64,000 nt of DNA from Burkholderiales bacterium (lineage in GTDB: Bacteria; Pseudomonadota; Gammaproteobacteria; Burkholderiales; SHXO01), in assembly GCA_046160525.1 (NCBI GenBank), contig JBJXGQ010000160.1:9096-73095 (forward strand), given 5' to 3'. The first letter of the stretch is position 1; every line of letters begins with the position of its first letter. Below are positions 4,206 to 33,343 of this stretch, one piece after another. Below the pieces are notes generated by a model. The model searched no databases. It was not told the DNA's origin and saw only the letters and a program-made list of their open reading frames with translations. The position numbers were made by a program, and so were the translations under genes.

Positions 4206-4218
4206 CCGAAGTCGCTGC

Positions 4219-8445: not shown

Positions 8446-8464
8446 CCATCGCCGGTCATAAGTC

Positions 8465-9385: not shown

Positions 9386-9404
9386 GCAGTCATCCGCCAT
9401 TTGA

Positions 9405-9974: not shown

Positions 9975-9982
9975 GGGCGCCC

Positions 9983-11170: not shown

Positions 11171-11172
11171 GA

Positions 11173-12369: not shown

Positions 12370-12552
12370 GGCTCTCTCATTTGCGCGGCGAAGCTTACGG
12401 GATTGACCCCAGACGGGCAACCACGGCGGGCGTTATTTCACGGCCTTATGTTAACGGCACATTGCACCGAATATGCAACGGCGGGGGTCTATAATCCCCG
12501 CTCTGCCCTTTCCGCTCCGCGCGCTTGCGCCCATCATTCAGGAGATACCACC

Positions 12553-16315: not shown

Positions 16316-17131
16316 CTAACCCGCTAAAGTGATTCGGTGCATGACGCGCCGGTAGCCGTGATAGTCGTTAATGGGGTTGTGTTGCGCGCAGCGATTGTCC
16401 CAAAAAGCTAACGAACCCGGCTCCCAACGAAAGCGGCAAGTAAATTCCGGCTTGGTCTGGTGGGCGAACAAGTACGCCAAGAGCGGGGCACTCTCCTCTT
16501 CCGTCATATTTCGAAAGCACTGCGTGTGCGCGACGTTGACGTAAAGCGCCTTGCGTCCCGTCTCGGGATGCACCCGCACCACCGGATGTTCTGCCACGTA
16601 CTCTTGCCGTGCATCATCGCGCGCATCGCTTCGAATACGGTCTTCTCGCGTGCGAGAAACATCCGCCTTGGAGGAGGTGTTGAGGGCGGTTAGCCCATCG
16701 AGAATCCGGCGCAGGCCTTCGGAGAGCGCTTCATAAGCGAGATATTGATTGGCGAACAAGGTATCTCCGCCAACGGGCGGCACCTCGCGCGCCAACAGCA
16801 TGGACCCCATGGGAGGGCGCTCCAGATAAGCCGTGTCGCTGTGCCAGATGCCCCCAAAATTGGTGCGCTCGTGCTCCAGCTTCTTCACTTCGATAATGAC
16901 AGGATAGTCCGGCAGCCCCTTTACAAAGGGATACTCCACGGGCTTGCCCATGGCTTGGGCGAAGGCGAGAAACTGAGCGGGCGTAAGGGACTGGTTGCGA
17001 AAAAAGATGACGAGATGATCGAGAAAGGCTTGCCGGATCTGCGTGATAATCTCGCTCGGCAGCGGGCGGGAAAGATCGGCCCCGTCGATCTGCGCTCCCA
17101 AGGCCCCCGCCACTTTTTTGATTTCGATCAT
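16316..17131 (-). CDS. TauD/TfdA family Fe(II)/2-oxoglutarate dioxygenase
   Basis: The family N-terminus MIEIKKVAGALGAQIDGADLSRPL starts at ATG 17131. WHSDTAY (the HxD iron site), GGDTLFAN and DNRCAQH are TauD motifs. Confidence 0.9.
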   Translation of the reverse strand: MIEIKKVAGALGAQIDGADLSRPLPSEIITQIRQAFLDHLVIFFRNQSLTPAQFLAFAQAMGKPVEYPFVKGLPDYPVIIEVKKLEHERTNFGGIWHSDTAYLERPPMGSMLLAREVPPVGGDTLFANQYLAYEALSEGLRRILDGLTALNTSSKADVSRTREDRIRSDARDDARQEYVAEHPVVRVHPETGRKALYVNVAHTQCFRNMTEEESAPLLAYLFAHQTKPEFTCRFRWEPGSLAFWDNRCAQHNPINDYHGYRRVMHRITLAG

Positions 17132-17216
17132 AACGCAATCCTTTCCATGAGTACCCAGCGTAACGGTAAATGCTGGCGTTGAGCAAGCGCACCGATAGCC
17201 ACCACCGGAGAACCTT

Positions 17217-18335
17217 ATGACTTTACGCACTCAAGCCCCCTTCCGCGCGGATCATGTAGGGAGCTTTCTGCGGCCCCGGCACTTGCTAGAGGCACGCGCG
17301 CAGTATAAGGAGGGCAAGATCCCCAAGGATGCTCTACGCCAAGAGGAAGACCGCGCCATCACCCAGATCGTCCGCTTTCAAGAAGACCTCGGCTTCCAGG
17401 GCATTACCGACGGCGAGTTTCGCCGCACCTATTTTCACATCGACTTTCTGGAACAACTGGCCGGCGTGGAGACCAAGGGCGGCATCGCCGTCAGTTTTCG
17501 CAGCAATGCGGGGAGCGTGGATTTTTCTCCTCCAGTGATGCATGTGACAGGAAAAGTCCGGCATGCCAAACCCATTCAGCTCGCTGACTTCCAATACCTC
17601 AAGTCCGCCACGGCACGCACTCCCAAGGTCACCATCCCCTCCCCCACCATGCTGCACTTTCGCGGCGGGCGTAACGCCATCAGCACGGAGGCCTACCCGG
17701 ATCTGGACGCGTTCTACTCCGATGTGGCGAGCGCCTACCGCGCCGAGCTTAAAAGTCTCGCGGATGCAGGTTGCCGCTACGTTCAAATGGACGATACCAA
17801 TTTGGCCTATCTGTGCGACGAGAAGATGCGCGCGGGCGCCCGCCAGCGCGGCGACGATCCGGACGAATTGCCACGCCGCTACGCGCGCCTCATCAACGCC
17901 GCCATCGCGCAGCGCCCGAAAGACATGATCGTATGCATGCACTTATGCCGCGGTAACTTCAAAAGTGGCTGGGCGGCAGAGGGCGGTTACGAACCCGTGG
18001 CGCAAGTGCTGCTCTCGGAAATGGATATCGACGGTTATTTCTTGGAGTATGACGATGCCCGTTCGGGCGATTTCGCGCCGCTACGCTTCTTGCCCAAGCA
18101 CAAGTTCGTGGTACTCGGATTGGTGACCACCAAGTTGGGTGAACTGGAGCCCAAGGACACCATCAAGCGCCGCATCGATGAAGCGGCACGCTTCGCCCCG
18201 CTTGAAAACTTGTGCCTTTCCCCGCAGTGCGGATTTTCCAGTACCGTGCACGGCAACGATATCGCGGCGCAGGCCCAGAGGGCTAAATTGCAGTTGGTCG
18301 TGGAGACGGCGCGCGAGGTGTGGGGAGACAAATAG
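17217..18335 (+). CDS. Cobalamin-independent methionine synthase II family protein (MetE C-terminal-domain-like)
   Basis: 372 aa. FRADHVGSFLRP, ITDGEFRR and a C-terminal LSPQCGFSS match the single-domain MetE-like (YxjG/YxjH-type) family. Confidence 0.88.
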   Translation: MTLRTQAPFRADHVGSFLRPRHLLEARAQYKEGKIPKDALRQEEDRAITQIVRFQEDLGFQGITDGEFRRTYFHIDFLEQLAGVETKGGIAVSFRSNAGSVDFSPPVMHVTGKVRHAKPIQLADFQYLKSATARTPKVTIPSPTMLHFRGGRNAISTEAYPDLDAFYSDVASAYRAELKSLADAGCRYVQMDDTNLAYLCDEKMRAGARQRGDDPDELPRRYARLINAAIAQRPKDMIVCMHLCRGNFKSGWAAEGGYEPVAQVLLSEMDIDGYFLEYDDARSGDFAPLRFLPKHKFVVLGLVTTKLGELEPKDTIKRRIDEAARFAPLENLCLSPQCGFSSTVHGNDIAAQAQRAKLQLVVETAREVWGDK

Positions 18336-18349
18336 GCTTGGGAGGCGTG

Positions 18350-19651
18350 ATGAAAAATATCTTCGTGACCGCGTTGATGGCCGCTGTGGTGTGCGCCGGT
18401 GCAAACGCGCAAACCACCCCCTCGGAATCGGTACTCCCAAGGCTCGCAAAGGTATTGAATCTGATCGATTCCAAGTATGTGAAGCCCGTGGACGAAGGCA
18501 AGTTGTTCACCGATGCCGTCAACGGACTGCTGAAGGGACTGGACCCGTACTCCACCTACTTGGACCCCGAGGCCTACCGCAAATTACAACAAGACGTTCA
18601 AGGCAAGTATGGCGGGCTCGGTATCGAGATGCGCAAGGACGGCGGTTTCTTCCGCGTCGTTTCCGTTATCGAGGACACTCCCGCCCATCGCGCCGGGCTC
18701 ATGCCGGGAGACCTAATCACGCGGCTGGACGATTCCAGCACCACCGATATGACGCTCGAACAAGCCGTGCGCCACACCCGTGGAACGCCCAATACGACCC
18801 TTACGCTCACCTTCTTGCGTGAAGGAGACTCCACGCCTCGTGTCCTTGAGTTGGAGCGCGAGCAAATCAAGGATCCCAGTGTACGGGCCGGCTTGATCGC
18901 GCCGCGCACCGCTTACTTGCGCCTCTCGCAATTTCACCGGCGCACGCCCGAGGAGATGGCACTAGCCCTTGAGAAACTCTCTCAGTCAACTCCCGGGGGT
19001 GTTACGGGAATCGTCCTCGATCTTCGGGACAATCTCGGTGGCAACTTGATCGCGGCAGTCGCCGTGGCCGGCGCGTTTCTCTCCAACGGAACCCTGGTCG
19101 TATACACCGAGGGCCTGTCGGAGGATTCCAAGCGCAAGTACCCGGTGCGTGCTCATCTGGGCCCCAAAAACACCGAGACCATTCCTCTCGTGGTGCTGGT
19201 CAACCAGCGCTCCGCGTCGGCATCTGAAATCGTCGCCGGTGCCCTGCAAGACCACCGCCGCGCCATCGTGCTGGGTACCCGCACCTACGGCAAAGGTTCC
19301 ATCCAGACGATCCTTCCCCTGGGGGATGGCGCCGCCGTGAAGCTCACGACCGCCCACTACTTCACACCCAACGGGCGCTCCATCGACAAACAAGGCGTCA
19401 CACCGGACCAGATAGTGGAGCAAGCGCCACCGGGTGGCAGCGAGGCCAGCGCCCAGAGCATTGCTCGCGGGCATCTGGCCTTCGAAAGCGAAGGGGATTC
19501 GGCTTCCAGCCGCATCGTCTGCGGCCTAGATCCATCTGCGCACCCTTCCGCCACAGCCCCCGCTATGCCACAAGAACCTGACCTTATCGACTGCCAGCTG
19601 CACCGCGCCTTGCAGGCTCTCACCAGGCAAAGCGTTTCGCGCGCACCGTAG
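18350..19651 (+). CDS. S41 family C-terminal processing peptidase
   Basis: ATG 18350 is preceded by GGAGG (18341-18345). Signal peptide MKNIFVTALMAAVVCAGANA, a PDZ region (GLGIEM...GDLITRLDD), and SASASEIVAGALQD / YGKGSIQ catalytic motifs. Confidence 0.9.
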   Translation: MKNIFVTALMAAVVCAGANAQTTPSESVLPRLAKVLNLIDSKYVKPVDEGKLFTDAVNGLLKGLDPYSTYLDPEAYRKLQQDVQGKYGGLGIEMRKDGGFFRVVSVIEDTPAHRAGLMPGDLITRLDDSSTTDMTLEQAVRHTRGTPNTTLTLTFLREGDSTPRVLELEREQIKDPSVRAGLIAPRTAYLRLSQFHRRTPEEMALALEKLSQSTPGGVTGIVLDLRDNLGGNLIAAVAVAGAFLSNGTLVVYTEGLSEDSKRKYPVRAHLGPKNTETIPLVVLVNQRSASASEIVAGALQDHRRAIVLGTRTYGKGSIQTILPLGDGAAVKLTTAHYFTPNGRSIDKQGVTPDQIVEQAPPGGSEASAQSIARGHLAFESEGDSASSRIVCGLDPSAHPSATAPAMPQEPDLIDCQLHRALQALTRQSVSRAP

Positions 19652-19663
19652 CGACCGGCTTGC

Positions 19664-20362
19664 CTATACCTTTACCAACCTGGCCAATTGCGGAAACATG
19701 AAGCGCTTTGCCTCGGCGTCCATTTCGGCCTTGAAGGTGTGCTTGCGCTTTAACTCCTCCACCCGCGCGACCGCGGGGCGCGCATTGATTTCGTCCAGGA
19801 GGCGCTTGAGGTTGGGAAGCTTCGCCCAATTTTCCTCGCCCCCCAGCACCAGCGGTACCAAGCGCGCCCATCCCCAGACCGCCATGTCGGCGATCGTATA
19901 AGTGGCACCCAGCATGTAGCGCCCCTTTCCAAGGCGCTCATCGATGATCTTCCAGTGGCGCTCGGCCTCGAAGTCGTAACGGTTGAGGGCATACTCCTTG
20001 GGTTCGGGCGCGTAATGGCGAAAATGCACCGCTTGGCCTGAGTAGGGGCCGATGCCGCTCGCCACGAACATGAGCCAAGAAAGCAGTTGCCCGCGCACTT
20101 CAGGGCGATCATTGTCCGCCGGAAGAAAGCGCTTGGTCTTGTCCGCCAGGTAGAGCAGGATCGCATTGCTATCGAACACCACGGCATCGCCATCCACGAT
20201 GGCGGGAACCTTGGCATTAGGGTTAACCGCCAGGTACTGCGCCTTGAACTGCTCTCCCTTGCGTGTATCCACGGGAATAGGCGTGTATTCGAGACCCGCC
20301 TCCTCCAGGAAGAGGGCAACCTTCATGGGATTGGGGGCGGCGTTGAAATAGAACTTGATCAA
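19664..20362 (-). CDS. Glutathione S-transferase, Nu class (YfcG-like)
   Basis: TTG start 20362 is preceded by GAGGAG at 7-nt spacing. MIKFYFNAAPNPMKVALFLEEAGLEY parallels E. coli YfcG. The zeta-class (MaiA) SSxxxRxRIAL motif is absent. Confidence 0.85.
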   Translation of the reverse strand: MIKFYFNAAPNPMKVALFLEEAGLEYTPIPVDTRKGEQFKAQYLAVNPNAKVPAIVDGDAVVFDSNAILLYLADKTKRFLPADNDRPEVRGQLLSWLMFVASGIGPYSGQAVHFRHYAPEPKEYALNRYDFEAERHWKIIDERLGKGRYMLGATYTIADMAVWGWARLVPLVLGGEENWAKLPNLKRLLDEINARPAVARVEELKRKHTFKAEMDAEAKRFMFPQLARLVKV

Positions 20363-20469
20363 TTTAAGTCTCCTCGTCGGTTGGTAGCTTGGTGATGCCC
20401 AAAGCGTGATGCACAATACACCACAAGACAGCCTATGTTTAGTCACCCCGATCTGGTTTTCCGAATGCC

Positions 20470-21786
20470 ATGACACTCGATGCCCAAGCCAATCTTTCCT
20501 ACCAAACGGGGTTCGGAAACGAATTCGCATCCGAGGCCTTGCCCGGCGCACTTCCCATTGGCCGCAACTCTCCGCAGAAGTGCCCCTATGGCCTGTATGC
20601 CGAGCAAATTTCGGGAACCGCTTTTACCGCGCCGCGCCACGACAACCGCCGCACCTGGCTCTATCGAATCCTTCCCGCCGCCAAGCACTCACCTTTCGAG
20701 CGCATAGACAATGGGCGCTGGACCAGCGATTTCTCCGTGCTTGGCGCGACCCCCAATCGATTGCGCTGGGAGCCGCTGCCTTCACCAGCGGTATCCGCGG
20801 ACTTCGTCGGTGGCATGATCACCATGGCGGGCAACGGGGACCCTCACACGCAAACAGGGTGCGGGATTCACCTCTACGCCATCAATCGCTCTATGACGGA
20901 CCGCTTTTTCTACAACGCCGACGGCGAAATGCTGGTGGTTCCGCAAGCCGGCGGATTGCGCTTCGCCACGGAATTGGGCGTGATCGATGTGCAACCCCAG
21001 GAAATCGTGGTCATTCCGCGCGGTATCCGATTCAGGGTTGAACTCCTGGAAGCCGAAGCCCGTGGCTATGTTTGCGAAAATTTTGGAGCGCCATTTCGCT
21101 TACCGGATTTGGGCCCCATCGGTTCCAACGGGCTCGCCAACCCGCGCGATTTTCTCTCGCCCACCGCGTGCTACGAAGACAGGGACGGGGATTTTTCTCT
21201 GACGACCAAATTCATGGGAAATCTGTGGTCCGCCCGCATCGGTCATTCACCGCTGGATGTGGTGGCATGGCATGGTAATCACGTCCCTTACAAGTACGAC
21301 TTGCGGCACTTCAACGTGTTGGGATCCACCAGCTTCGATCATCCGGACCCCTCGATATTCCTGGTGCTGCAATCAGTAAGCGATACGCCAGGCGTGGACA
21401 TGATCGATTTCGTTATTTTTCCGCCGCGCATCCTCGCCATGGAAAACACCTTGCGCCCGCCCTGGTTCCACCGCAATATCGCGAGCGAGTTCATGGGGCT
21501 CATCCACGGGGTCTACGACGCCAAGGCGCAAGGCTTCAACCCTGGAGGCGCCAGCCTGCACAATTGCATGAGCGGGCACGGGCCCGATGCGCAAACCTTC
21601 GAGAAAGGCTCCAACGCGGACACCAGCAAGCCCCAATACCTACGCGACACCATGGCCTTCATGTTCGAGACTCGCTACGCCATCCGGCCCACCCGATTTG
21701 CCATGGAATCGCCCCAATTACAAGCAGACTATCACCTCAGCTGGCAAAGTTTGCGCAAGCACTTCGATGCTGCCCGCCGCGGTTAG
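20470..21786 (+). CDS. hmgA: Homogentisate 1,2-dioxygenase
   Basis: 438 aa. [48 protein letters not shown] is the canonical HmgA N-terminus. Confidence 0.96.
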
Positions 21787-21818
21787 ACTAAGAGCGAAGA
21801 AAACTCCCCTGGCCTGAG

Positions 21819-23138
21819 ATGTACAAAACCAACGAAACGCACGACGCAAATTTGAGAAGCTGGGTCGAATCCGCCAACGAGCCCGGTTGCGACTTTCCCC
21901 TTCAGAACTTACCCTTCGGAGTCTTCCGGCGACAAGGGAGCAACGAGGATTTTCGCGGCGGGGTAGCCATTGGACGGGAGATTCTCGATCTCAAGGCTGC
22001 CTCCCACGCAGGTGTGTTCTCGGGCATGGCGGCGCGCGCGGTGCTTCAGTGCAGCCAGGCAACGCTCAACGCATTCTTCACCATGGGACCCCAGCCCTGG
22101 TCCGCACTGCGAGGAGCGCTCTCGCAAGCCCTGCGCGTGGGATCCAGTCACGCCGGTAAGTTGCGTGCATGCATGATCGAACAGGCGGAGGCCGAGTACG
22201 CCCTTCCCGCGACTATCGGGAACTACACGGACTTCTACGCGTCCGTTCATCACGCCACCAATGTCGGAAAACTCATGCGCCCGGACAATCCTTTGCTGCC
22301 CAATTACAAATGGGTCCCCATTGGATATCACGGGCGCGGCTCATCCCTGCGCGTCGCCGGGCGCGATTTCCACCGCCCCTGGGGCCAGACCATTCCCCCC
22401 GGAGCGGACAAACCCACCCTTGGTCCCTCCAAGCGGCTGGATTACGAACTGGAGGTGGGGATCTACGTCGGATGCGGTAATGAACTCGGACAACGCGTGC
22501 CTATCGAGAAAGCCGAACAGCACGTCTTCGGCCTTTGCCTGCTCAACGATTGGTCGGCGCGGGACATCCAGGCTTGGGAATACCAACCCTTGGGGCCATT
22601 TCTGGCGAAGAGTTTCGCCACCACGGTTTCACCGTGGATCGTGACGCTGGAGGCCCTGGCCCCCTACCGTCTGGCATGGACACGGCCAGAGCAAGATCCC
22701 CAGCCCCTGCCCTACCTCGACTCCAAGGTTAACCGCGACTTCGGTGCCATCGACCTGAAGCTCGAAGCCTGGTTGGAGACGCAAAAGATGCGCTCAGCAG
22801 GACATCCGCCCAGCCGCCTGTCACAAACGAGTTTCAAGCATTCCTACTGGACCATGGCGCAATTAGTGGCCCACCATACCGTCAATGGATGCGATCTTCA
22901 CCCAGGAGATCTATTGGGCAGCGGCACTCAATCCGGGCCCACGGCGGAAGAACTCGGATCTTTGCTGGAGATTACCCAAGGCGGCAAACAGCCGCTGAAG
23001 CTCGGGAATGACGAGGCGCGCACTTTTCTTGAGGACGCAGACCGCGTCATTCTTCGGGGCTGGTGCGAGCGCGCTGGCTTCGCACGCATCGGTTTCGGAG
23101 AATGCAGCGCCACGGTGCTTCCCGCCCTCCCCTCGTGA
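21819..23138 (+). CDS. fahA: Fumarylacetoacetase
   Basis: 439 aa. FPLQNLPFGVF, GYHGRGSS and LLNDWSARDIQAWEYQPLGPF are FAH motifs. It follows hmgA by 32 nt. Confidence 0.95.
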   Translation: MYKTNETHDANLRSWVESANEPGCDFPLQNLPFGVFRRQGSNEDFRGGVAIGREILDLKAASHAGVFSGMAARAVLQCSQATLNAFFTMGPQPWSALRGALSQALRVGSSHAGKLRACMIEQAEAEYALPATIGNYTDFYASVHHATNVGKLMRPDNPLLPNYKWVPIGYHGRGSSLRVAGRDFHRPWGQTIPPGADKPTLGPSKRLDYELEVGIYVGCGNELGQRVPIEKAEQHVFGLCLLNDWSARDIQAWEYQPLGPFLAKSFATTVSPWIVTLEALAPYRLAWTRPEQDPQPLPYLDSKVNRDFGAIDLKLEAWLETQKMRSAGHPPSRLSQTSFKHSYWTMAQLVAHHTVNGCDLHPGDLLGSGTQSGPTAEELGSLLEITQGGKQPLKLGNDEARTFLEDADRVILRGWCERAGFARIGFGECSATVLPALPS

Positions 23139-23253
23139 AACCAGCCTCCTCAAAAGAGTTCCTACAGATTCATTTACCGCTGCCGATGTCCCGGCAAGGA
23201 TCCCCACATCTCGGCGCGGCGGCCTATGCCAGCGGCGCACAAGGAGGTTGATC

Positions 23254-24129
23254 ATGACTGTTGAACGATGCCGCAATGCCTTGGCCCTCGCCGCGTTAGC
23301 GAGTCTTGTGAGTCCTTGCGTTACCGTGCTCGCGGCCTGCCCGACCCACATGGAAGTCCTGGCCATTGTTACGGCCTACACCAACAAGACCCCCATCGAG
23401 TCATTGACACGGCTGCGCGATATGGACGATGCCTATTGCGCGCAAGGCCTAATAGCCGCTGAAATTGGGCGAAGCATGGGGGTCATGACTGGATACAAGG
23501 CAGCATTCACCAGCGATAGCGTGCAGGCCCAATACCACACTGGCGAACCCCGGCGCGGATTTCTGTACGAAAAGATGTTCTTGAAGAACGGCGTGACGGT
23601 AGCCGCCGATTTCGGTGCCCGCCCCCAATTCGCGGCCGACTTGATCATGGTGGTCAAGGATTACAACCTGCACGACGCCCGCACACCTCTGCAAGCGCTT
23701 TCCCATCTCTCCCATGTTGTCCCCTTCATAGAGCTGTCTGACCTCATGATCGGGCATGACCAGACCGTGACCGCCTTGAATCTGGTCGCCACGAACATGG
23801 GCACTCGCATGGGGGTGCTGGGCACGCCTATTCCCGTGCAAGCGACACAAGAGTTTCTCGATCGGCTCGCCAACATGGTGGTCATCATGCGCGACCATGA
23901 AGACAACGAGCTGGGCCGCGCCCGCGGTAGTGAAATGCTGGGCAACCCGGTAGCAGCCCTTCTGTGGCTCGCCAAGGATCTTGCCGACAACGGGCAGCGC
24001 ATCCAGATGAGTGATCGCATCAGCGTGGGCGCATTCTTCCCCGGCGGCACACCCAAACCGGGCCTCGCCATCAACGTGCAATACCAAGGCCTTCCCGGCG
24101 ATCCGAGCGTAGCGGTGAAGTTTCGCTAG
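23254..24129 (+). CDS. 2-keto-4-pentenoate hydratase / 4-oxalocrotonate decarboxylase family protein with an N-terminal signal/lipoprotein-like extension
   Basis: ATG 23254 is preceded by AAGGAGG (23241-23247). GYKAAFTSDSVQAQYHTGEPRRGFLY fits the MhpD-type G-[YW]-K-x-G-x-TS motif. The first ~30 aa (ALALAALASLVSPCVTVLAAC) look like an export signal. Confidence 0.8.
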   Translation: MTVERCRNALALAALASLVSPCVTVLAACPTHMEVLAIVTAYTNKTPIESLTRLRDMDDAYCAQGLIAAEIGRSMGVMTGYKAAFTSDSVQAQYHTGEPRRGFLYEKMFLKNGVTVAADFGARPQFAADLIMVVKDYNLHDARTPLQALSHLSHVVPFIELSDLMIGHDQTVTALNLVATNMGTRMGVLGTPIPVQATQEFLDRLANMVVIMRDHEDNELGRARGSEMLGNPVAALLWLAKDLADNGQRIQMSDRISVGAFFPGGTPKPGLAINVQYQGLPGDPSVAVKFR

Positions 24130-24137
24130 CTTAGGCA

Positions 24138-25181
24138 ATGGACAAAAAACTTCTCGGCGAACTGCGCGCTCGTTACGCAGGCGGGAAGGGCGGGGAATTA
24201 TTCGATCCCGAGTTCAAACGGGTGGCCGATGCCCAATTCCAAAACGGCGAGAAACGCAAGTTGCCCTATGCCGATCCGGCCACCTTTCTGGGCCTGCCCT
24301 TCATCCCGCAGAGTGCGCAAGGCAATGGGATTGCCGGTCTAGACGTAGCTGTCATAGGCGTGCCCATGGATTTGGGCGTGACCAACCGGGCGGGCGCCCG
24401 CTTGGGACCCCGAGCGGTGCGCGCGGTGGAGCGCATCGGCCCCTACGAACACGTACTGCGTGCGGCACCCGCGGCTGAAGTGCGGGCGGCGGACATCGGC
24501 GATGTTCCTTTTCGCAGCCGCTTTGACTTGGAGTCTTGCCACCAAGATATCGAAGCGTTTTTCAGCGCTATCCACGCGAGCAAGGTGATCCCGCTGGCCG
24601 TCGGAGGCGATCACTCCATCAGCTATTCGATCTTGCGTGCCTTGGGCCGCGAGCGGCCCGTGGGGATGATTCACCTGGATGCCCATTGCGATACGGGCGG
24701 TGTCTACGAGGGCTCGAAGTTTCACCATGGCGGCCCCTTTCGCCAAGCGGTGTTGGATGGCGTGCTGGATCCCGCACGCACCATACAGATCGGCATTCGC
24801 GGGGGGGCGGAGTATCTATGGGAATTCTCCTACGCATCCGGCATGACGGTCATTCACGCCGAGGAAATGGTGGAAATGGGATTGGGCGCCGTCATCGCCA
24901 AGGCGCGCGCAGTCGCGGGAGACGGCCCGGTCTATCTGTCCTTCGACGTGGATTGCCTGGACCCCGCCTTCGCGCCGGGAACGGGAACGCCCGAGGTGGG
25001 CGGCCTCAGCTCGCGCGAGGCGCTCACCATCGTGCGCGGCATGAATGGCATTGATCTGGTGGGTGCGGATGTCGTGGAGGTCGCCCCGCAATACGACGGC
25101 ACCACCAATACCGCTCACATCGCCGCGCAGATACTGTTCACCGAACTGTGCCTGGCGGCAACGGCAATCAAGGCGCGATAG
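24138..25181 (+). CDS. Ureohydrolase (agmatinase / guanidino-acid hydrolase family)
   Basis: 347 aa with Mn-site motifs GGDHSISY, LDAHCDTGG and SFDVDCLDPAFAPGTGTPE. It starts 8 nt after the preceding gene. Confidence 0.9.
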   Translation: MDKKLLGELRARYAGGKGGELFDPEFKRVADAQFQNGEKRKLPYADPATFLGLPFIPQSAQGNGIAGLDVAVIGVPMDLGVTNRAGARLGPRAVRAVERIGPYEHVLRAAPAAEVRAADIGDVPFRSRFDLESCHQDIEAFFSAIHASKVIPLAVGGDHSISYSILRALGRERPVGMIHLDAHCDTGGVYEGSKFHHGGPFRQAVLDGVLDPARTIQIGIRGGAEYLWEFSYASGMTVIHAEEMVEMGLGAVIAKARAVAGDGPVYLSFDVDCLDPAFAPGTGTPEVGGLSSREALTIVRGMNGIDLVGADVVEVAPQYDGTTNTAHIAAQILFTELCLAATAIKAR

Positions 25182-26227
25182 TGTTCGGCCATCCCGATTA
25201 CGACGGGCATGAATGCGTCATCCATGTGCGCGACGCGCGCAGCGGGCTGCGAGCCATCATCGCCATTCACGACACCACCCTTGGCCCGGCCTTCGGAGGC
25301 TGCCGCATGCGCGTCTATGCGAACGATGCGGACGCCCTCGCGGACGCTTTGCGCTTGTCGCGCGGAATGACCTTTAAGTCCGCGATCTGCAATCTTCCTT
25401 ATGGAGGCGGAAAGTCCGTCATCATAGGCGACCCGGTGCGGGATAAAACACCGGAGCTTCTGCGCGCCATGGGGCGCGCGGTGGAGGATCTCGCAGGGCG
25501 TTACATCATCGCCGATGACGTGGGTACCACCTTGGCCGACCTCGCGCTCATGCGCCAAGCCACGACTCACACCGCGGCCGCTACGCAATCCGCGCAACAG
25601 CCTTTGGGGGTCACGGCCCACGGCGTGTTCAACGCCATGCTGGCGGCCATCGAACATGTTTATGGCCGCACGAGCTGCCAAGGCTTGCGCGTCGCGGTGC
25701 AAGGGCTCGGAAATGTTGGCGGGCCCCTGTGCGAACTACTGAGGGCGCAAGGTGCGCAACTCATCGTGTGCGACACGGACGCCGGGCGTGCCACCAGGGC
25801 CACGCAGGATTGGCAGGCCATCGTGGTTCCTCCGGAGGATATTTACCATCAGGAAGCCGATATCTTCGCGCCTTGTGCCCTGGGCGGCATATTGAACAGC
25901 GAGACACTGCCGCGCCTCAAAGCACGCGTAGTGTGCGGCGGGGCCAACAACCAGCTTGCGGACAGTTCCCATGCGCGGCAACTGCACGCGCGCGGCATCC
26001 TCTATGTGCCGGATTATCTCGCCAGCGCTGGGGGCGTGATCGATTTTCACCAGGAAAGCATCGACGATTCCCCCAGGGCCGTGCTCCTGGCCGTGGAGCG
26101 TATCCGGGGGATCACCGCCAGTGTCTTGCAGGACGCCCGCGATACCGGTGTCACGCCACTTCAGGCCGCAAACGATCGCGTTCGCAGACGCCTCGCTCAA
26201 GTCTCGCCAGCGTTCTCCACGGCGTGA
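25181..26227 (+). CDS. Glu/Leu/Phe/Val dehydrogenase family protein (Leu/Phe-dehydrogenase-like)
   Basis: GTG 25181 overlaps the ureohydrolase TAG stop (TAGTG). GLRAIIAIHDTTLGPAFGGCRM, catalytic-Lys motif LPYGGGKSVI and NAD-binding fold VQGLGNVGG are present. The track start 25148 lies inside the previous gene. Confidence 0.88.
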   Translation: MFGHPDYDGHECVIHVRDARSGLRAIIAIHDTTLGPAFGGCRMRVYANDADALADALRLSRGMTFKSAICNLPYGGGKSVIIGDPVRDKTPELLRAMGRAVEDLAGRYIIADDVGTTLADLALMRQATTHTAAATQSAQQPLGVTAHGVFNAMLAAIEHVYGRTSCQGLRVAVQGLGNVGGPLCELLRAQGAQLIVCDTDAGRATRATQDWQAIVVPPEDIYHQEADIFAPCALGGILNSETLPRLKARVVCGGANNQLADSSHARQLHARGILYVPDYLASAGGVIDFHQESIDDSPRAVLLAVERIRGITASVLQDARDTGVTPLQAANDRVRRRLAQVSPAFSTA

Positions 26228-26934
26228 ACAACGGGCTTACGCCAGAGGCTGGGGCCTTTGCGCCCTTTTTCGATGTCGTCAAGCATCCGCTCGTGAGCGT
26301 GTAACTCCTCCTCGGTAGCCAGGATCAAGGGAAGATCGAGAACAGCGTTGGCCGCCAGCTCTCTCGCCTCTCCAGATGCGGGGGCCACCACGTCCATGAC
26401 CAAGGAGTCCTGTCCCCGGGTCATGGCGAGAAACACTTCCGCCAGCAGCCGCGCGTCGAGCAACGCACCGTGTACAGTGCGATGGGAGTTGTCGATTTGA
26501 TAGCGCTCGCATAGGGCATCGAGATTCGCGCGCTTGCCGGGATTGAGATCCTTGGCGATGCGCAGCGTGTCGGTCACTTTGCTGCAATAGTCCTTGAGAG
26601 CGCCGTGGCCCGCCAGCGCGAATTCCGCGTTGAGAAATCCTACGTCGAAAGGTGCGTTATGGATGACCAACTCGGCGCCACGGATGAATTCGATAAACTC
26701 CGTGGCGACATCCTTGAAGTGCGGTTTGTCCTGGAGAAACTCGATGCCGATGCCGTGCACGTCACGTGCGCCGGCGTCGATATCGCGATCCGGATTCAAG
26801 TAACGCTGAAAGCTGTTACCAGTGAGACGGCGGTCGATGATCTCAACGGCCGCCACTTCGATGATGCGATGGCCCTGGGACACTTCCAGGCCCGTGGTCT
26901 CCGTATCGAGCACCACTTGGCGTAGCGCACTCAT
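26197..26934 (-). CDS. dnaQ: DNA polymerase III epsilon subunit (3'-5' exonuclease)
   Basis: The family N-terminus [16 protein letters not shown] starts at ATG 26934, in an ATGA overlap with the rnhA stop. Exo motifs [10 protein letters not shown] and HGALLDA are present. Confidence 0.93.
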
Positions 26935-27371
26935 GGGTTCAGAGACTCCACGCCCAAGTTCGCCAACTGGTCCGCGCGTTCGTTTCCAGCGTGGCCCGCG
27001 TGCCCTTTCACCCAAATCCACTCGGTGTCGTGGCCCGCGGCAAGCTCGTCGAGCTGTTTCCACAGATCCTCGTTCTTGACTGGCTTCTTATCCGCCGTGC
27101 GCCATCCCCGCCGCTTCCAGTTGTGAATCCACTGCGTGATGCCTAGCTGAACGTATTGCGAATCGGTGTGTATTCGAACCTTGCAACGCCGCTTGAGCGC
27201 CATGAGACCCTGAATCACGGCGGTAAGCTCCATTCTGTTATTCGTCGTCTTGGCTTCGCCTCCGTGTAGCTCGCGAGTGTTTTCGCCGCGAGCCAGTATG
27301 ACGCCCCAACCACCGGGACCTGGATTGCCCTTGCAGGCGCCATCGGTAAACATGTCGACGGTCTCGCTCAC
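26931..27371 (-). CDS. rnhA: Ribonuclease HI
   Basis: GTG 27371 overlaps the upstream methyltransferase stop (GTGA). (M)[29 protein letters not shown] and [14 protein letters not shown] are present. The track ORF is over-extended to 27758. Confidence 0.93.
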
Positions 27372-28132
27372 CGCTCTTGCTCCTGCGTATCTTTCTGAGT
27401 CATGGAGGCTCCGCCCACGCGGCGGGGTACGGCGGCGAGCGCCTTGCTCTTTAGCCCGGAGCGCTTCCACTTGGGCATGATCAAGCGCATGCCATGCACG
27501 CGCTTGATGCCATGGAGCACGTAAACGCCTCCCATGAAAGGCCACCAGCGGTCTCCCGCCGCATCCAGGAATCCGAAGCGTTGCAGCCACTCTTCGCGCC
27601 GCACGGGTGGCAAGTAACAACGCATGCGTCCCGCCGCCAGTTCGACCCCCAATAGCTTCATCCAATCCTTCAGGCGCGGCAAGTTGATGAATTCGCCGCA
27701 CCAGGGAAAGCGGGCCGTCTTGGATTCGAACATCTGGCGCACACCCCACAGGCTCCACGGGTTAAACCCGGTGATGACCACATGCCCGTCGGGCATGAGC
27801 ACGCGAGCCACCTCTCGCAACACCTCGTGGGGATTGGTACTGAACTCCAATACGTGGGGCATCACCACCAAATCGACGCTTTGGGAGAGCAAAGGCAGTG
27901 CTTCAAAGTCTCCAGTTATCTCGCCCCCGCCCTCGGGATCCAAGTGGTAGCGGTAGGGAATTCGGTTGCTCTTCAGGAAGTCCATCCCTGGCAGCCCCAA
28001 TTGCAGGGAGTGGAATCCGAAGACATCCGCGACCTCGTGATCGATACAAGCCTGCTCGGACTTCAACAAATACTGCCCTAACGGGGTAGACAACCACTGG
28101 CCTAGGCTATCGGCTAAGGCTTCATCGTGCAT
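27368..28132 (-). CDS. Class I SAM-dependent methyltransferase (YafS-like, rnhA-linked)
   Basis: Start at ATG 28132 ([14 protein letters not shown]...). [12 protein letters not shown] and [19 protein letters not shown] are present. The position next to rnhA-dnaQ matches the enterobacterial yafS neighbourhood. Confidence 0.85.
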
Positions 28133-28340
28133 TGCAAGTTTCCATTGGCATAACCAAGCGTGGATATTCGCCTTTCCAGCACCTAAAAACAACTCCCTCG
28201 TTTCGTTCTCACGCCATCCACCGGAGGGGGCTCGCGGTATAGCGCAATGCGAAAAATCTATCCATGGGAGCTATTGGGCGCGGCCCTTGCTGGCTAAGCC
28301 TAGACATTCAATACCTCTCTGAGGTATTCCCTCTAAGTTA

Positions 28341-28370
28341 TTGACTAACCGAAGATTACTCGGTTAACAT
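28341..28370 (+). promoter_or_regulatory. Candidate mltD promoter with embedded dyad operator
   Basis: TTGACT (28341-28346), an 18-nt spacer, then TAACAT (28365-28370). A perfect dyad TAACCGA-N7-TCGGTTA (28346-28366) fills the spacer. Confidence 0.3.
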
Positions 28371-28398
28371 TGTTACCAATTACCGCAACCGGCGTCGC

Positions 28399-29886
28399 AT
28401 GAGAACAACAACCCCCCGTTTTTTTGCATTTCCCCTCGCATCATTCCTCTGGTTTTCGCTCTCGTCCGCCCATGGCGGGGATGGAACGCTGTTTCCTCCA
28501 GGAGCCGCCCAAGCTCCCGACCGCCCCGCCTTCGCGGCCGAAGTACCCAGCGCGCCGCGCCCGAATGCCTTGCCTGCGCCCGCCTTCATGCCCAACCTGA
28601 TGGCCCCGGTGGAGATCGCGGCCCCGCAACTGCTGGACCCAACGCAGATCTCCGAGGAGGAAGCGTCCGATGTCTGGGCCCGCATTCGCCAAGGTTTCGC
28701 AATGCCAGATATCGAAGGGCCGTTGGTGGAAAAACACGAGGACTGGTATTCCGACCGGCCCGATTACATGGCGCGCATGCTAGATCGCAGCCGCCGTTAC
28801 TTGTTCTTCATCGTCGCGGAAATCGAGAAGCGCGATATGCCCATGGAGATCGCCCTGCTCCCCATGATTGAGAGCGCCTACAACCCGCGCGCGGACTCGC
28901 GAATGAAGGCGGCAGGCATGTGGCAGTTCATTCCATCGACGGGAAAACGCTACGGGCTCAAACAAAATTTTTGGTACGACGGTAGGCGCGACGTGATGGA
29001 CGCCACGCGCGCCGCGCTGGACTACTTGCAAACCTTGCACGCGATGTTCGGCGATTGGCAATTAGCACTCGCTGCCTATAATTGGGGGGAAGGAGCAGTA
29101 TCCCGCGCCATCGCCAAGAATCGCGCGGCCGGTAAGCCCACGGACTACGCTAGCTTGACGATGCCGGCGGAAACGCGCAATTACCTTCCCAAGTTGCAGG
29201 CGGTGAAAAATCTCATTGCCGATCCTGAGTCATTTGGGTTCACCATCGAGTCCGTGCCCAATGAGCCTTACTTCACCACGGTGAAGGTGCCAGGGCAGAT
29301 CGATGTCAAGCTGGCGGCGAAGCTCGCCAACATGTCCGTCGAGGAATTTCGTTACTTGAATCCCGCTCACAGCCGCCCTGTAATCCTGCCGGGCGCGGGG
29401 AAACAGCTCCTGGTTCCAGCGGATAAGGCCGATCTTTTCCACGAAAACCTGGAGAACTTCGAAGAACCCCTGGTCACTTGGCAGTCCCACCGGGTACAAA
29501 GGAAAGAGCGCCTTCGCAACGTCGCGCAAAAGTATGGAGTCAGCGTTGAACTCCTGTGCGAAGCGAACGGACTGACTTTGAAATCGCGCCTGCGTCCTGG
29601 GCAATTGGTGCTGGTGCCCGCGAGAAATCCCGCGCGGGCCACCGCCCTTCCGACCCATGCCGACCACGCGGACTTCGCACCCGCCAATAGCGTCGTCCCG
29701 CAGAGAAGGAAGGGACTGTACCGGGTGAAGCGCGGCGAAACGCTGTTCGCTATCGCACGTAAGCATGCGGTTAGCGTGGCTCAATTAAAGTCCTGGAACC
29801 GGCTAAAAGCCAACACCGTGCGGGCGGGCCAGCTCCTTGTGGTCGGGCCGCACCGGGCCCGCGGCCAGAAACTGGCGATGAGCTAG
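28399..29886 (+). CDS. mltD: Membrane-bound lytic murein transglycosylase D-like (SLT domain plus LysM repeats)
   Basis: 495 aa with a signal peptide, a Pro/Ala-rich linker, the SLT catalytic region (LPMIESAYNPRADSRMKAAGMWQFIPSTG...AYNWGEG) and C-terminal LysM repeats (YRVKRGETLFAIARKHAVSVAQLKSWN). Confidence 0.9.
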   Translation: MRTTTPRFFAFPLASFLWFSLSSAHGGDGTLFPPGAAQAPDRPAFAAEVPSAPRPNALPAPAFMPNLMAPVEIAAPQLLDPTQISEEEASDVWARIRQGFAMPDIEGPLVEKHEDWYSDRPDYMARMLDRSRRYLFFIVAEIEKRDMPMEIALLPMIESAYNPRADSRMKAAGMWQFIPSTGKRYGLKQNFWYDGRRDVMDATRAALDYLQTLHAMFGDWQLALAAYNWGEGAVSRAIAKNRAAGKPTDYASLTMPAETRNYLPKLQAVKNLIADPESFGFTIESVPNEPYFTTVKVPGQIDVKLAAKLANMSVEEFRYLNPAHSRPVILPGAGKQLLVPADKADLFHENLENFEEPLVTWQSHRVQRKERLRNVAQKYGVSVELLCEANGLTLKSRLRPGQLVLVPARNPARATALPTHADHADFAPANSVVPQRRKGLYRVKRGETLFAIARKHAVSVAQLKSWNRLKANTVRAGQLLVVGPHRARGQKLAMS

Positions 29887-31886
29887 ATCTCTTTCCCTCC
29901 GTATAGGTGGCACTTGACCACGTGTGTGGATGTCACCTTTACAGCGCCCGGATAGTGCACCCGGCACTGCGCTTCAACCTTCGGACAGCGGGGCGCGAAA
30001 TGACATCCTTGAGGCGGATTGCTAGGCGAGGGTAATTCTCCTTGAAGGCGCACCACCTCGCGCTTAGTGGCCGGGTCGATTCGTGGAACCGCCGATAGCA
30101 AGGCCTGCGTATAAGGGTGTTTAGGCGACCTCAACACCTCCTCCACGGTTCCTGTTTCGACGATGCGTCCCAGATACATCACCGCCACGTGGTGGGCCAA
30201 ATAATCCACCACGGAGATGTTGTGAGTGATGAACAGATAGGCCAACCCCAAGCGTTGTTGTAGGTCACGCAATAGATTGAGGATCTGCGCCTGCACCGAT
30301 ACGTCCAGGGCTGAGGTCGGTTCGTCGCACACAATCAGTTGTGGTTCCACCGCGAGCGCGCGCGCGATGGCAATGCGCTGGCGTTGCCCGCCGGAAAATT
30401 CATGGGGATAGCGGTAGCGCATCTCGGGCGACAGACCCACTTGTTCGAGGAGTTCGTCCACGCGCCGCTCACGCTCTTGCGCTTCGCCTCCAACGCCAAG
30501 CGCCTGCATTCCCTCTTGCACGATATCCATCACCCGCATGCGCGGGTTGAGCGAACTATAGGGATCCTGAAAAATGATCTGCAGCGCCTTGCGGTGCTTG
30601 CGCATGCCTTCGTAGGACAGCGCACTCAATTCGCTTCCCGCGAACTCGATGCTGCCACCCGTCAGTGGGAGAAGTCTCAACAATCCCTTGCCGAGAGTCG
30701 TTTTACCGCACCCGGACTCGCCCACCAAGGCCAAAGTGCGATGAGATGGAATCTCCAGGCCGACGCCGTCCACGGCGCGCACATAACCCACGACGGAACG
30801 CAACACGCCCTTGCGAATTGGGAAATGGATCTCTAGATCCTTGACCGACAGCAGGGGGGCGCCAGCGTTATCTTGCGAGGCTTCTCCTGCCGCCACGGCA
30901 CCCTGGGCAAGCGCCTTCCCTTCGAAGGGAAGATGACACCGCACGCGCTGGCCATGATTCAGATCAACCCACGGCGGCAAGGAGGTGCGGCAATGGGGCA
31001 TCACGTGCTCGCAGCGGTCCGCAAAGCGGCAACCGGAGAATACTTGCGACAGGGATGGCACTACGCCCGGAATCACGGCAAGCGCTTCGCCGCGTCCGCC
31101 GCCGCGCGGCACAGCCTCGAACAATTTGCGGGAATAAGGATGCGCGGGCCGGCTGAAAAATGTCTCGCGCGCTGCGATCTCAACCAATTCACCCGCGTAC
31201 ATCACCCCTACGCGATGCGCCATCTCAGCCACCACGCCAAGATCGTGGGTGATGAGCAAGACCGCCATGCCGCGCTCTTTCTGCATGCCACGTAACAACT
31301 CCAGCACTTGTGCCTGAATGGTGACGTCCAGCGCTGTGGTAGGTTCATCGGCCACCAACAGGCTAGGGTCGCAAGCGAGCGCCATGGCAATCATCACACG
31401 CTGCTTCATGCCGCCCGACATCTGGAAAGGGTATTCCCCCATGCGCCTTGCGGCATCGGGAATACCCACCGCACCCAGCAGTTCGGTGCAGCGGGTGCGC
31501 GCCGCGGAACCACGCAATGGCGTGTGCTGTACCAGCACCTCCTCAATTTGCGCTCCCACACTCATCACGGCATTCAAACTGGCGGCGGGCTCCTGGAAAA
31601 TCATCGCCATGCGATCGCCCCGTACGGCGCGCATGGCGGATTCCGGCAATGCCAGAATATCGAGTCCATTCAGGCATACCTGGCCCGAAACGATGCGGGC
31701 TGCGTCGGGTAACAGACGCATGAGGGACAACGCGGTCATGGACTTGCCGCAACCGGATTCCCCGAGTAATGCAAAGGTTTCGGCGGGCTCAATGGTGAAG
31801 GACACGCCATCCACGGCTCGCAGGGGTGCCGCCCCCGCATCGATCCAGGTGACCAGATCTATAACCTCAAGCAGCGGCGCGCTCAT
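29883..31886 (-). CDS. yejF: ABC transporter ATP-binding protein with two fused ATPase domains (YejF-type)
   Basis: Start at ATG 31886 (MSAPLLEVIDL...), in an ATGA overlap with the yejE stop. Two Walker A sites (GESGCGKS twice) and two signature motifs (MSGGMKQR, FSGGQRQR) are present. The track ORF is over-extended to 32354. Confidence 0.92.
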   Translation of the reverse strand: MSAPLLEVIDLVTWIDAGAAPLRAVDGVSFTIEPAETFALLGESGCGKSMTALSLMRLLPDAARIVSGQVCLNGLDILALPESAMRAVRGDRMAMIFQEPAASLNAVMSVGAQIEEVLVQHTPLRGSAARTRCTELLGAVGIPDAARRMGEYPFQMSGGMKQRVMIAMALACDPSLLVADEPTTALDVTIQAQVLELLRGMQKERGMAVLLITHDLGVVAEMAHRVGVMYAGELVEIAARETFFSRPAHPYSRKLFEAVPRGGGRGEALAVIPGVVPSLSQVFSGCRFADRCEHVMPHCRTSLPPWVDLNHGQRVRCHLPFEGKALAQGAVAAGEASQDNAGAPLLSVKDLEIHFPIRKGVLRSVVGYVRAVDGVGLEIPSHRTLALVGESGCGKTTLGKGLLRLLPLTGGSIEFAGSELSALSYEGMRKHRKALQIIFQDPYSSLNPRMRVMDIVQEGMQALGVGGEAQERERRVDELLEQVGLSPEMRYRYPHEFSGGQRQRIAIARALAVEPQLIVCDEPTSALDVSVQAQILNLLRDLQQRLGLAYLFITHNISVVDYLAHHVAVMYLGRIVETGTVEEVLRSPKHPYTQALLSAVPRIDPATKREVVRLQGELPSPSNPPQGCHFAPRCPKVEAQCRVHYPGAVKVTSTHVVKCHLYGGKEI

Positions 31887-33343
31887 CGTGGTGGCGCGGC
31901 CAGAGCCAAGCGGCGCCTGAAAGACAATGACCATCCCGAGCGCATGCGCGGATCGAAGGCATCTCGCACACAATCGGCAAACAGGTTCGCGGATAGCACC
32001 AGTAAAAACATGAACACGAATGCGGCGGCAAGCGACCACCACACGGCAGGCTCGCGCGCCAGCTCCAGCCTGGCATTGTTGATCATGGTGCCGAAGCTGA
32101 TCATGGACGGATCCACTCCGACGCCCACATAGGACAGCACTGCCTCGGCCAGCACCAATCCGCTGAAGTCCATCACGATGGATATCAGAACGATGTGCAT
32201 GAGGTTGGGCAACAGGTGCCGCACCATGACACGCCAGTGACTCACTCCCAGCGCGTGAGCGGCCTGGACGTAATCGGACTCGCGGAGCTTCAAGGCTTCC
32301 CCCCGAAGAAGGCGGCACAACCCTGTCCAGGAAGTGATACCGAGGATGACGCACAGGAGCAACAGCCGCACGTCGGCCCGTTCGGTGAGCGTTTCGAATA
32401 ATTCTGGATGGCGGTCCATCCAGACTTGGCTCAACAACACCGAAGCCGCGATGAGCAAGACCCCGGGGATCGAATTAAGTGTGGTGTAAACGTACTGGAT
32501 GATATCGTCCACCCAGCCGCGTAAGTACCCCGCCATGACACCGAGCGCGAGTGCAAACGGCAACACGATAAGCGTGGTGAGCGTGCCGATGACCAGGCCA
32601 GTGCGAATGCTTTTCAGCGTTTGGTAAAGCACGTCCTGGCCTACCTTGTCGGTGCCAAAGACGTGGTAGCGCACACTTAGCATGAGGACAGGGCAGACCA
32701 CCAACAAGAGCAAGCCCAGCGTGATAAGCATGGCCCGCCATGGAACTTCCGATTCACCGCGGATCATCTGCGTCACGATCGCGCCGAACGAAGCGTTCCG
32801 GCCTTGGGCAATCCATGCCGCCACTGCCATGGAAATCGCAATCCATAGCCCGATGGCCAATCCGGCCCCGCCCATGACGCGGCGAGCTATGTCGGCATGG
32901 CGTTGCTCTTGCGGATCATTGAGATGCGCCCCTGCGTGCCTAAGTCTTGGAAACTCGCGCGACTGCGTACCATCGGCCTTTGTGACGGTTTCCTTGGCGA
33001 AGGAGTACACCGCCAGGGGCTCCGAGTAGGTCTTCTCCGTACGGGTGCGCACAGGCGCGGTAAACACGTCGAGCACACTGAGCACTTCGGCCGCGTAATT
33101 GGCACGGCCTTGGTTATCCTTGCTGTCCAGGCGCGCGCGAAAATGCATTGAGTCCAGCATGCCTACCAGCACGAAACACAACAAGACGACCAAGGCGCAC
33201 ATTCCATAGGCACTTCGGGCCACCTTACGCCAGGGCGCCAGGAGATGCTCGCGGCGCCTCACATAGGAAATGAAGACCACTACCGACACCAATAGCACAT
33301 AGACCAGCAAGTCCGTCCAAAGAAATACGGGTTTGAAGGGCAT
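31883..33343 (-). CDS. yejE: ABC transporter permease (YejE-type) with a long N-terminal extension
   Basis: Start at ATG 33343 (MPFKPVFLWTDLL...), in a TAATG overlap with the yejB stop. The C-terminal half is a BPD-type permease core. The track ORF is over-extended to 33871. Confidence 0.88.
   Translation of the reverse strand: MPFKPVFLWTDLLVYVLLVSVVVFISYVRRREHLLAPWRKVARSAYGMCALVVLLCFVLVGMLDSMHFRARLDSKDNQGRANYAAEVLSVLDVFTAPVRTRTEKTYSEPLAVYSFAKETVTKADGTQSREFPRLRHAGAHLNDPQEQRHADIARRVMGGAGLAIGLWIAISMAVAAWIAQGRNASFGAIVTQMIRGESEVPWRAMLITLGLLLLVVCPVLMLSVRYHVFGTDKVGQDVLYQTLKSIRTGLVIGTLTTLIVLPFALALGVMAGYLRGWVDDIIQYVYTTLNSIPGVLLIAASVLLSQVWMDRHPELFETLTERADVRLLLLCVILGITSWTGLCRLLRGEALKLRESDYVQAAHALGVSHWRVMVRHLLPNLMHIVLISIVMDFSGLVLAEAVLSYVGVGVDPSMISFGTMINNARLELAREPAVWWSLAAAFVFMFLLVLSANLFADCVRDAFDPRMRSGWSLSFRRRLALAAPPR

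Follow-up and report, generated by a model that had tools for sequence, protein, structure and literature searches.

Apparent stepwise assembly of an operon joining an exported MhpD-fold protein, a ureohydrolase, and an ELFV amino-acid dehydrogenase to hmgA-fahA

We analyzed a 64,000-nucleotide stretch of DNA from a Burkholderiales bacterium (contig JBJXGQ010000160.1 of assembly GCA_046160525.1; hereafter the window), in which three intact genes follow hmgA and fahA on the plus strand. The first (23254–24129) encodes an exported, hydratase-like protein of 291 residues with the MhpD/HpcG fold, the second (24138–25181) a 347-residue arginase-family ureohydrolase of the GpuA/GbuA-like type, and the third (25181–26227) a 348-residue NAD-type amino-acid dehydrogenase of the Leu/Phe/Val branch of the ELFV family. 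An original prediction had made the same family assignments and had gone on to propose that the three proteins form a single module for catabolism of a guanidino amino acid. That proposal drew no support from gene conservation, and the hydratase-like protein is exported and its gene appears to have joined hmgA-fahA earlier than the other two. We favor, with moderate confidence, a co-expressed composite operon, a patchwork for scavenging nitrogen and amino acids that was accreted in two steps within one shallow lineage of a betaproteobacterial genus not yet in culture, over a conserved three-enzyme pathway.

In the first step, the gene for the exported MhpD-fold protein would have joined the 3′ end of hmgA-fahA; in the second, a translationally coupled ureohydrolase-dehydrogenase pair of 2.1 kb would have been set into the short convergent gap before dnaQ. 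Transcription of the five genes probably starts at the hmgA promoter. The ureohydrolase may hydrolyze an imported linear guanidino acid (of the 3-guanidinopropionate, 4-guanidinobutyrate, or taurocyamine class), yielding urea and an ω-amino acid, and the urease of the organism, whose genes are present elsewhere in its genome (G000), could then free ammonia from that urea. The dehydrogenase would oxidatively deaminate an α-amino acid other than Leu, Ile, or Val, presumably the same substrate that its stand-alone relatives use, and the exported protein would be active, or would bind a ligand resembling a 2-oxo acid, in the periplasm, separately from these two enzymes.

Distribution and order of assembly

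Multiple lines of evidence support stepwise accretion. First, orthologs of all three genes were present in the same 4 of 28 genomes sampled from the genus (G000, G001, G006, and G018) and in no others of this sample, all of which resembles metagenome-assembled genomes (MAGs), and the genes were adjacent in each of the four. A Logan contig (L179) carries the same five-gene block of hmgA-fahA-hydratase-ureohydrolase-dehydrogenase, with mscL in place of dnaQ downstream; contig L006 and the contig from G001 are one record. Junctions within the block were tight in all copies, and the ureohydrolase and dehydrogenase genes overlapped by 1 nt in every intact copy but that of L179, in which they directly abut.

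Second, this linkage was not found outside the clade. We sampled 80 genome loci of ureohydrolase orthologs (66–73% identity) and, for relatives of the dehydrogenase, 80 metagenome loci. Within 8 kb of the 80 ureohydrolase orthologs there was no dehydrogenase or hydratase gene and neither hmgA nor fahA, and none of the 80 dehydrogenase loci contained another gene of the trio, hmgA, or fahA. The neighbors of the next-closest ureohydrolase (75% identity) were unrelated, a 65%-identical dehydrogenase stood alone among unrelated neighbors on three long contigs, and homologs of the hydratase-like protein at 41–57% identity occupied unrelated contexts. Co-conservation of the trio was thus confined to the four genus genomes and L179.

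Third, a sister contig (L007) has the block without the pair. It carries hmgA-fahA and a hydratase-like gene (64% identity), and the stop codon of a convergent dnaQ gene, whose C-terminal part is matched by the open reading frame (ORF) at 7913–8209, lies just 11 nt farther on. This arrangement is that of the window minus the 2.1-kb ureohydrolase-dehydrogenase pair, and the position of dnaQ 11 nt after the hydratase-like gene argues that the pair is a separate addition. Trees built for hmgA, fahA, and the hydratase-like protein placed L007 outside the pair-bearing clade. Judged from these sequences, the simplest history is one in which the hydratase-like gene was added first to hmgA-fahA and the pair second.

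Fourth, in G018 the ureohydrolase gene (L008, G018:C24, 7213–8260, minus strand) has lost its ATG start to ACG, carries a frameshift close to the segment encoding SFDVDCLDP, and is a probable pseudogene, and the hydratase and dehydrogenase frames stay open. Retention of an open dehydrogenase frame beside a decayed ureohydrolase indicates that the pair is not obligatorily coupled. The 698-residue ureohydrolase-dehydrogenase "fusion" that can be read in G018 was rejected, because the frameshift simply puts the 3′ end of the ureohydrolase gene into the dehydrogenase frame. Finally, the dehydrogenase of the trio shows no sign of specialization: it has every residue of the pocket signature that marks the stand-alone subfamily described below, and it nests within that subfamily. 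If the favored history is correct, tight packing and stop/start overlaps can come from recent accretion without marking a pathway, a caution for prediction of function from operon structure.

Dehydrogenase subfamily

The dehydrogenase matched both ELFV domains (PF02812, 92.6 bits; PF00208, 68.5 bits). The GGGK motif and the GxGxxG dinucleotide motif claimed for it are present, the latter as GLGNVG, and Lys78 of GGGK aligns with catalytic Lys80 of the leucine dehydrogenase (LeuDH) of Lysinibacillus sphaericus (1LEH). Among solved structures, the best matches were to LeuDHs (3VPX and 1LEH, ~1e-90; best value 1.7e-91), followed by tryptophan dehydrogenase (2.5e-81) and phenylalanine dehydrogenase (PheDH; 1C1D, ~5e-57). 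The score against the tryptophan dehydrogenase ScyB model (NF035922) was 335.5 bits, under the cut-off of 600, and matches in the Atlas were to generic Leu/Phe/Val dehydrogenase clusters only. The window enzyme has in common with LeuDHs (1LEH, 3VPX, 6ACF) the two-domain ELFV fold, equivalents of Lys80, Lys68, and Asp115, the GxGxxG motif, and the Asp typical of NAD-dependent enzymes.

The differences from LeuDH are concentrated in the substrate pocket. Specificity in Leu/Phe/Val dehydrogenases is determined by Leu40, Ala113, Val291, and Val294 (PMC2723916), and the LeuDH cavity also takes in Glu114, Asp115, and Thr134 (PMC11200242). In an alignment with 1LEH, the four specificity positions of the window enzyme read Phe, Ala, Val, and Phe (L40F and V294F), Glu114 and Asn293 are both replaced by Asp (E114D and N293D), and the Thr134 loop is shorter by three residues. 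Phe occupied positions 40 and 294 in all 149 subfamily members compared (58–70% identity), in which Phe38, Cys41, Ile69, Cys70, Pro73, Asp112, Asp288, and Phe289 of the window enzyme were invariant or nearly so and Tyr74 was present in 131. By contrast, LeuDH residues prevailed at the signature positions in 40 relatives of less than 55% identity. A tree split the subfamily with Phe at both positions from sequences with the LeuDH signature, with a support value of 100 (SH-aLRT, the Shimodaira-Hasegawa-like approximate likelihood-ratio test), and placed the window enzyme and its relatives from the genus in one clade nested within the subfamily. This tree contains no experimentally characterized LeuDH or PheDH; the alignment with 1LEH supplied the LeuDH signature. 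Because it lies in a separate, fully supported clade and differs at two of four specificity positions, the window dehydrogenase is, on sequence grounds, not a LeuDH and represents a distinct, uncharacterized subfamily; it does not cluster with LeuDH-type sequences.

Literature searches found no characterized member of this subfamily. Its members are common in metagenomes, abundantly so in those of soil and groundwater, and none occurred in a sample of 400 genomes from the phylum. In one locus only (L180, 44–2993), the iolD gene of myo-inositol catabolism adjoins a subfamily member, a dehydrogenase of 68% identity that begins 32 nt downstream. The thiamine-diphosphate (ThDP) enzyme of that locus was considered as a 2-ketoarginine decarboxylase and rejected, as it is IolD (862 bits) and the arrangement did not recur. 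The subfamily, with its invariant, non-LeuDH-like pocket, merits specialist attention; amino-acid dehydrogenases of new specificity also have biocatalytic value.

The position of the dehydrogenase gene suggests another role, in which the enzyme would be a Phe/Tyr dehydrogenase that supplies phenylpyruvate or 4-hydroxyphenylpyruvate to the homogentisate route and the ureohydrolase would be an unrelated passenger. In keeping with this idea, the dehydrogenase gene and hmgA-fahA appear to form a common transcription unit, HPPD is encoded elsewhere in the genome (in G000, at the ends of contigs C253 and C302), and the pocket is rich in aromatic residues (Phe38, Tyr74, Phe289). Nevertheless, the enzyme does not look like a PheDH, because positions 113 and 291, which are altered in PheDH (PMC2723916), are Ala and Val as in LeuDH. 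Smaller residues at positions 113, 134, and 294 widen the LeuDH cavity (PMC11200242), from which we infer that the cavity should become narrower, and not wider, with Phe at 40 and 294. Moreover, PheDH structures matched far worse than LeuDH structures (1e-57 versus 1e-91), and subfamily members in the loci sampled elsewhere never adjoin hmgA or fahA. We therefore regard a feeder role in aromatic catabolism as quite improbable.

Ureohydrolase and its coupling to the dehydrogenase

The ureohydrolase scored 290 bits against PF00491 (cut-off 22), and its best solved relatives were GpuA (3NIP, 300 bits) and GbuA (3NIO, 244 bits), ahead of the best "agmatinase" structure (209 bits) and of arginases (at most 114 bits). 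The predicted GGDHS, DAHCD, and SFDVDCLDP motifs are all present and align with the binuclear-metal motifs of GpuA and GbuA. The window enzyme shares the arginase fold and all of these motifs with the Pseudomonas aeruginosa enzymes (3NIP/3NIQ and 3NIO) and is orthologous to neither; by a rough reading of the alignment, about half of its residues are identical to those of GpuA. The N-terminus had been thought to resemble that of guanidinobutyrase or guanidinopropionase, and here the comparison went the other way: alignments to GpuA and GbuA begin at residues 38 and 44, leaving the first ~37 residues as an uncovered extension, unlike the N-termini of those enzymes. Coupling to an ELFV dehydrogenase is also peculiar to the window enzyme; we take it that neither gpuA, in the Pseudomonas gpuPAR genes, nor gbuA, in gbuA-gbuR, is so coupled.

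Full-length orthologs at 66–73% identity are abundant in Alphaproteobacteria, with hosts that include Methylobacterium, Bosea, Ancylobacter, Thalassospira, Azospirillum, Rhizobium, and Brucella, and the window clade nests among these alphaproteobacterial sequences in a tree whose root falls on a very long branch to the outgroup and from which we claim no direction of transfer. Genes for ABC, MFS, and TRAP transporters were recurrent neighbors in the 80 ortholog loci (L014–L093), a setting that fits catabolism of an imported guanidino compound. Named transporter neighbors were a PotA-like ATPase with a TOBE domain, SBP_bac_3 proteins, DctP-type TRAP binding proteins, and MFS proteins. In the window, neither a LysR-type regulator nor a dedicated permease gene lies beside the ureohydrolase gene. 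We rejected a tie to the ω-aminotransferase or TauD genes of the window, since an ω-aminotransferase homolog was nearby in just 3 of the 80 loci.

Could these instead be housekeeping genes that merely abut, with the ureohydrolase serving as a SpeB agmatinase for putrescine and the dehydrogenase as an ordinary LeuDH? The ureohydrolase does pass the looser NCBIfam agmatinase equivalog (TIGR01230, 186.7 bits versus a cut-off of 174.3) and is the sole arginase-family gene found in each of the four trio genomes, and a relative in the genus (G025) has speA-speB and an ELFV gene directly after fahA. However, it fails the SpeB subfamily model (PRK02190, 272 bits versus a cut-off of 302), against which SpeB of G025 scored 384 bits; genuine SpeB proteins of the genus are just 38–40% identical to it; its closest solved structures are GpuA and GbuA; and no speA gene turned up in the four trio genomes (88–97% complete). 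The failure of PRK02190, together with the lack of speA and of a second arginase-family gene in these genomes, makes an agmatinase role in polyamine synthesis unlikely, and the ureohydrolase does not rank as a SpeB-type agmatinase. As the dehydrogenase also falls outside the LeuDH-like clade and departs from LeuDH at two specificity positions, we consider this housekeeping explanation highly improbable. The G025 locus itself (L174, G025:C75:88000-104000, minus strand 1573–12413) contains hmgA-fahA, speA, SpeB, a short GluDH-like ELFV gene, and a three-gene 2-oxoacid:ferredoxin oxidoreductase. Its look-alike gene order was rejected as a conserved theme, because its SpeB and ELFV proteins are 38% and 31–32% identical to those of the window; G014 and G021 have speA-speB without an ELFV gene.

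A more serious competitor keeps the guanidino chemistry and drops the hydratase-like protein: the ureohydrolase and dehydrogenase could form a two-step route for a guanidino amino acid. The dehydrogenase might act first, making a 2-oxo acid such as 2-ketoarginine that the ureohydrolase cleaves to urea and a cyclizing amino-oxo acid, or the ureohydrolase might act first, freeing from an amidino compound an α-amino acid that the dehydrogenase then deaminates. The 1-nt overlap in intact copies (direct abutment in L179) and the inheritance of the pair as a unit in one clade both speak for such a route, as does the lack of speA or another arginase-family gene in the trio genomes. Characterized ureohydrolases of the guanidino-acid type, to which the window enzyme belongs, require substrates that carry an acidic head group (PMC9772407). 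On the dehydrogenase side, the route is favored by Phe at both position 40 and position 294 and by the invariant Asp residues at 293 and 114; positions 40 and 294 are critical to Glu specificity in glutamate dehydrogenase (GluDH; PMC2723916).

Against the two-step route, the linkage is absent from both sets of 80 loci and from four further contexts, and the pocket is identical in stand-alone dehydrogenases and thus is not adapted to the partnership. In addition, G018 retains the dehydrogenase while the ureohydrolase decays, the operon lacks a 2-ketoarginine decarboxylase and an aldehyde dehydrogenase, and a literature search found no ELFV enzyme that acts on arginine. A search for ThDP enzyme and aldehyde dehydrogenase genes, limited to positions 17000–33000 and thus not genome-wide, found none. 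The proposed logic is that of the Pseudomonas AruH-AruI-KauB-GbuA and DauA/DauB routes, which turn arginine into a 2-oxo acid and hydrolyze a guanidino acid to urea, and no conserved linkage supports such a pathway at the window locus. AruH is a transaminase, and DauB belongs to a protein family other than that of the window dehydrogenase. On balance, we judge the two-step route to be unlikely.

Its boldest form is more doubtful still. In that form, the pair would be a self-contained route for a basic guanidino amino acid that needs neither a transaminase nor an oxidase; the ELFV subfamily with the Phe/Phe/Asp pocket would be the first of the Leu/Phe/Val type whose specificity is for cationic side chains (Arg, homoarginine, Orn, or Lys); the 2-oxo guanidino acid so formed would be split by the GpuA-like enzyme into urea and a cyclizing amino-oxo acid; and, as a separate matter, the exported MhpD-fold proteins would make up a class of periplasmic enzymes without a described member.

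Several observations nonetheless weigh against the patchwork operon that we favor. Every genome of the trio clade is a fragmented MAG, and the G018 pseudogene could be an assembly error. The 1-nt overlap was kept while the dehydrogenase diverged to ~67–71% identity between genomes, which argues for selection on co-expression. The pair apparently arrived together, a hint that the donor may already have had the unit, and a dehydrogenase pocket with two Phe residues and Asp at or beside specificity positions could accommodate a positively charged side chain. What counts most against fully independent reactions is the translational coupling of the pair combined with its joint inheritance.

Exported MhpD-fold protein and boundaries of the locus

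The hydratase-like protein matched no Pfam family, being missed by PF01557, and scored ~55 bits (best 55.9) against NCBIfam MhpD/HpaH models with cut-offs of ~350. Its fold was read from an AlphaFold2 model (predicted local distance difference test, pLDDT, of 93.5, with low values for residues 1–30). Foldseek aligned this model with 4-oxalocrotonate decarboxylase (8IH6, 5D2F), MhpD (1SV6), and 2EB6 (E-value of 2.5e-23; target-normalized template-modeling, TM, scores of ~0.85, range 0.84–0.87) at ~24% sequence identity. The whole-domain fold is common to MhpD (1SV6/2WQT), HpcG (2EB4), 4-oxalocrotonate decarboxylase, and the window protein. Compared with MhpD and HpcG, a signal peptide with a Cys pair and loss of the first ligand Glu are peculiar to the window protein, and its gene adjoins hmgA-fahA rather than the meta-cleavage genes expected for MhpD, HpaH, or XylJ.

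A hydrophobic, lipobox-like N-terminal extension had been predicted for this protein. The hydrophobic, export-type extension stood up to analysis, as MhpD alignments begin at residue 47, residues ~1–28 form a signal peptide, and N-terminal hydrophobic, signal-like segments occurred in 93 of 120 family members in one set and 101 of 119 in another. The lipobox did not: the LAAC sequence is variable among homologs, several of which have Arg or Asp before the Cys. The closer half of the homologs have AxA-x-Cys-Pro after the signal peptide, at the predicted cleavage site, and the second Cys of the conserved Cys29...Cys62 pair is invariant. Because AxA-x-Cys-Pro and the second Cys are conserved and LAAC is not, cleavage by signal peptidase I and formation of a periplasmic disulfide would be a better fit than lipidation. 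The mature protein is probably periplasmic, and an exported protein cannot directly share a compartment or substrates with a cytoplasmic NAD-dependent dehydrogenase.

The metal site is also altered. At the positions of the MhpD/HpcG metal triad, which we take to be Glu106, Glu108, and Glu139, the window protein has Ala127, Asp129, and Glu160. The first position was a variable small residue in every homolog of at least 47% identity and Glu in 79 more distant ones, and the other two acidic ligand positions and the Lys equivalent to Lys60 of MhpD are kept. Among 1.84 billion representatives, the exported MhpD-fold family comprised 333 clusters (50% identity) at E ≤ 1e-30, which Pfam models do not catch and which are of specialist interest. 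The window protein and proteins P0004–P0123 and P0364–P0511 are members of this undescribed family.

The start of the hydratase-like gene is well placed. As originally predicted, the sequence and the ORF list show an AAGGAGG Shine-Dalgarno sequence (23241–23247) 6 nt 5′ of the ATG at 23254, an 8-nt gap between the TAG stop codon (24127–24129) and the ureohydrolase ATG (24138), a TAGTG overlap in which the ureohydrolase TAG (25179–25181) and the dehydrogenase GTG (25181–25183) have a G in common, and a position directly after hmgA-fahA. The longest ORF in the hydratase frame begins at 23008, where the 3′ end of fahA is still being read, and gene callers could over-extend the gene by 82 codons; this start was rejected, because the Shine-Dalgarno sequence and the N-termini of homologs favor 23254.

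The unit begins with hmgA (homogentisate 1,2-dioxygenase, 20470–21786, plus strand; TIGR01015, 660 bits versus a cut-off of 511; Pfam HgmA_N and HgmA_C), followed by fahA (fumarylacetoacetase, 21819–23138, plus strand; TIGR01266, 542 bits versus a cut-off of 375), which lies directly 5′ of the trio and is separated from it by a 115-nt spacer. On the right, the 3′ end of the dehydrogenase gene overlaps by 31 nt that of the convergent dnaQ gene (26197–27063, minus strand; NF004316, 311 bits). A putative terminator-like hairpin with a T run (26243–26266, plus strand), detected by pattern scan alone, lies 16 nt past the dehydrogenase stop codon and falls within the 3′ end of dnaQ. From hmgA to the dehydrogenase stop codon, the same scan of the plus strand found no terminator-like site except a weak hairpin (26025–26037) inside the dehydrogenase coding sequence. 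A scan for σ70 promoters returned no site, and positions 19000–28500 contained no Rfam match at E ≤ 0.1, guanidine riboswitches included. The G+C content at third codon positions was 0.74 for the ureohydrolase-dehydrogenase pair and 0.70–0.76 for its neighbors, and we rejected a compositional trace of recent transfer because the pair lies within this range.

Divergent from hmgA, the gene at 19664–20362 (minus strand) encodes a glutathione S-transferase resembling YfcG and the Nu class, which scored 149 bits against a model of glutathione-dependent disulfide oxidoreductases and 54 bits against the maiA model (cut-off 171). All relatives seen (L005, L006, L007, and L179) keep this YfcG-like gene upstream of hmgA, and the gene product is a candidate for a non-zeta maleylacetoacetate isomerase.

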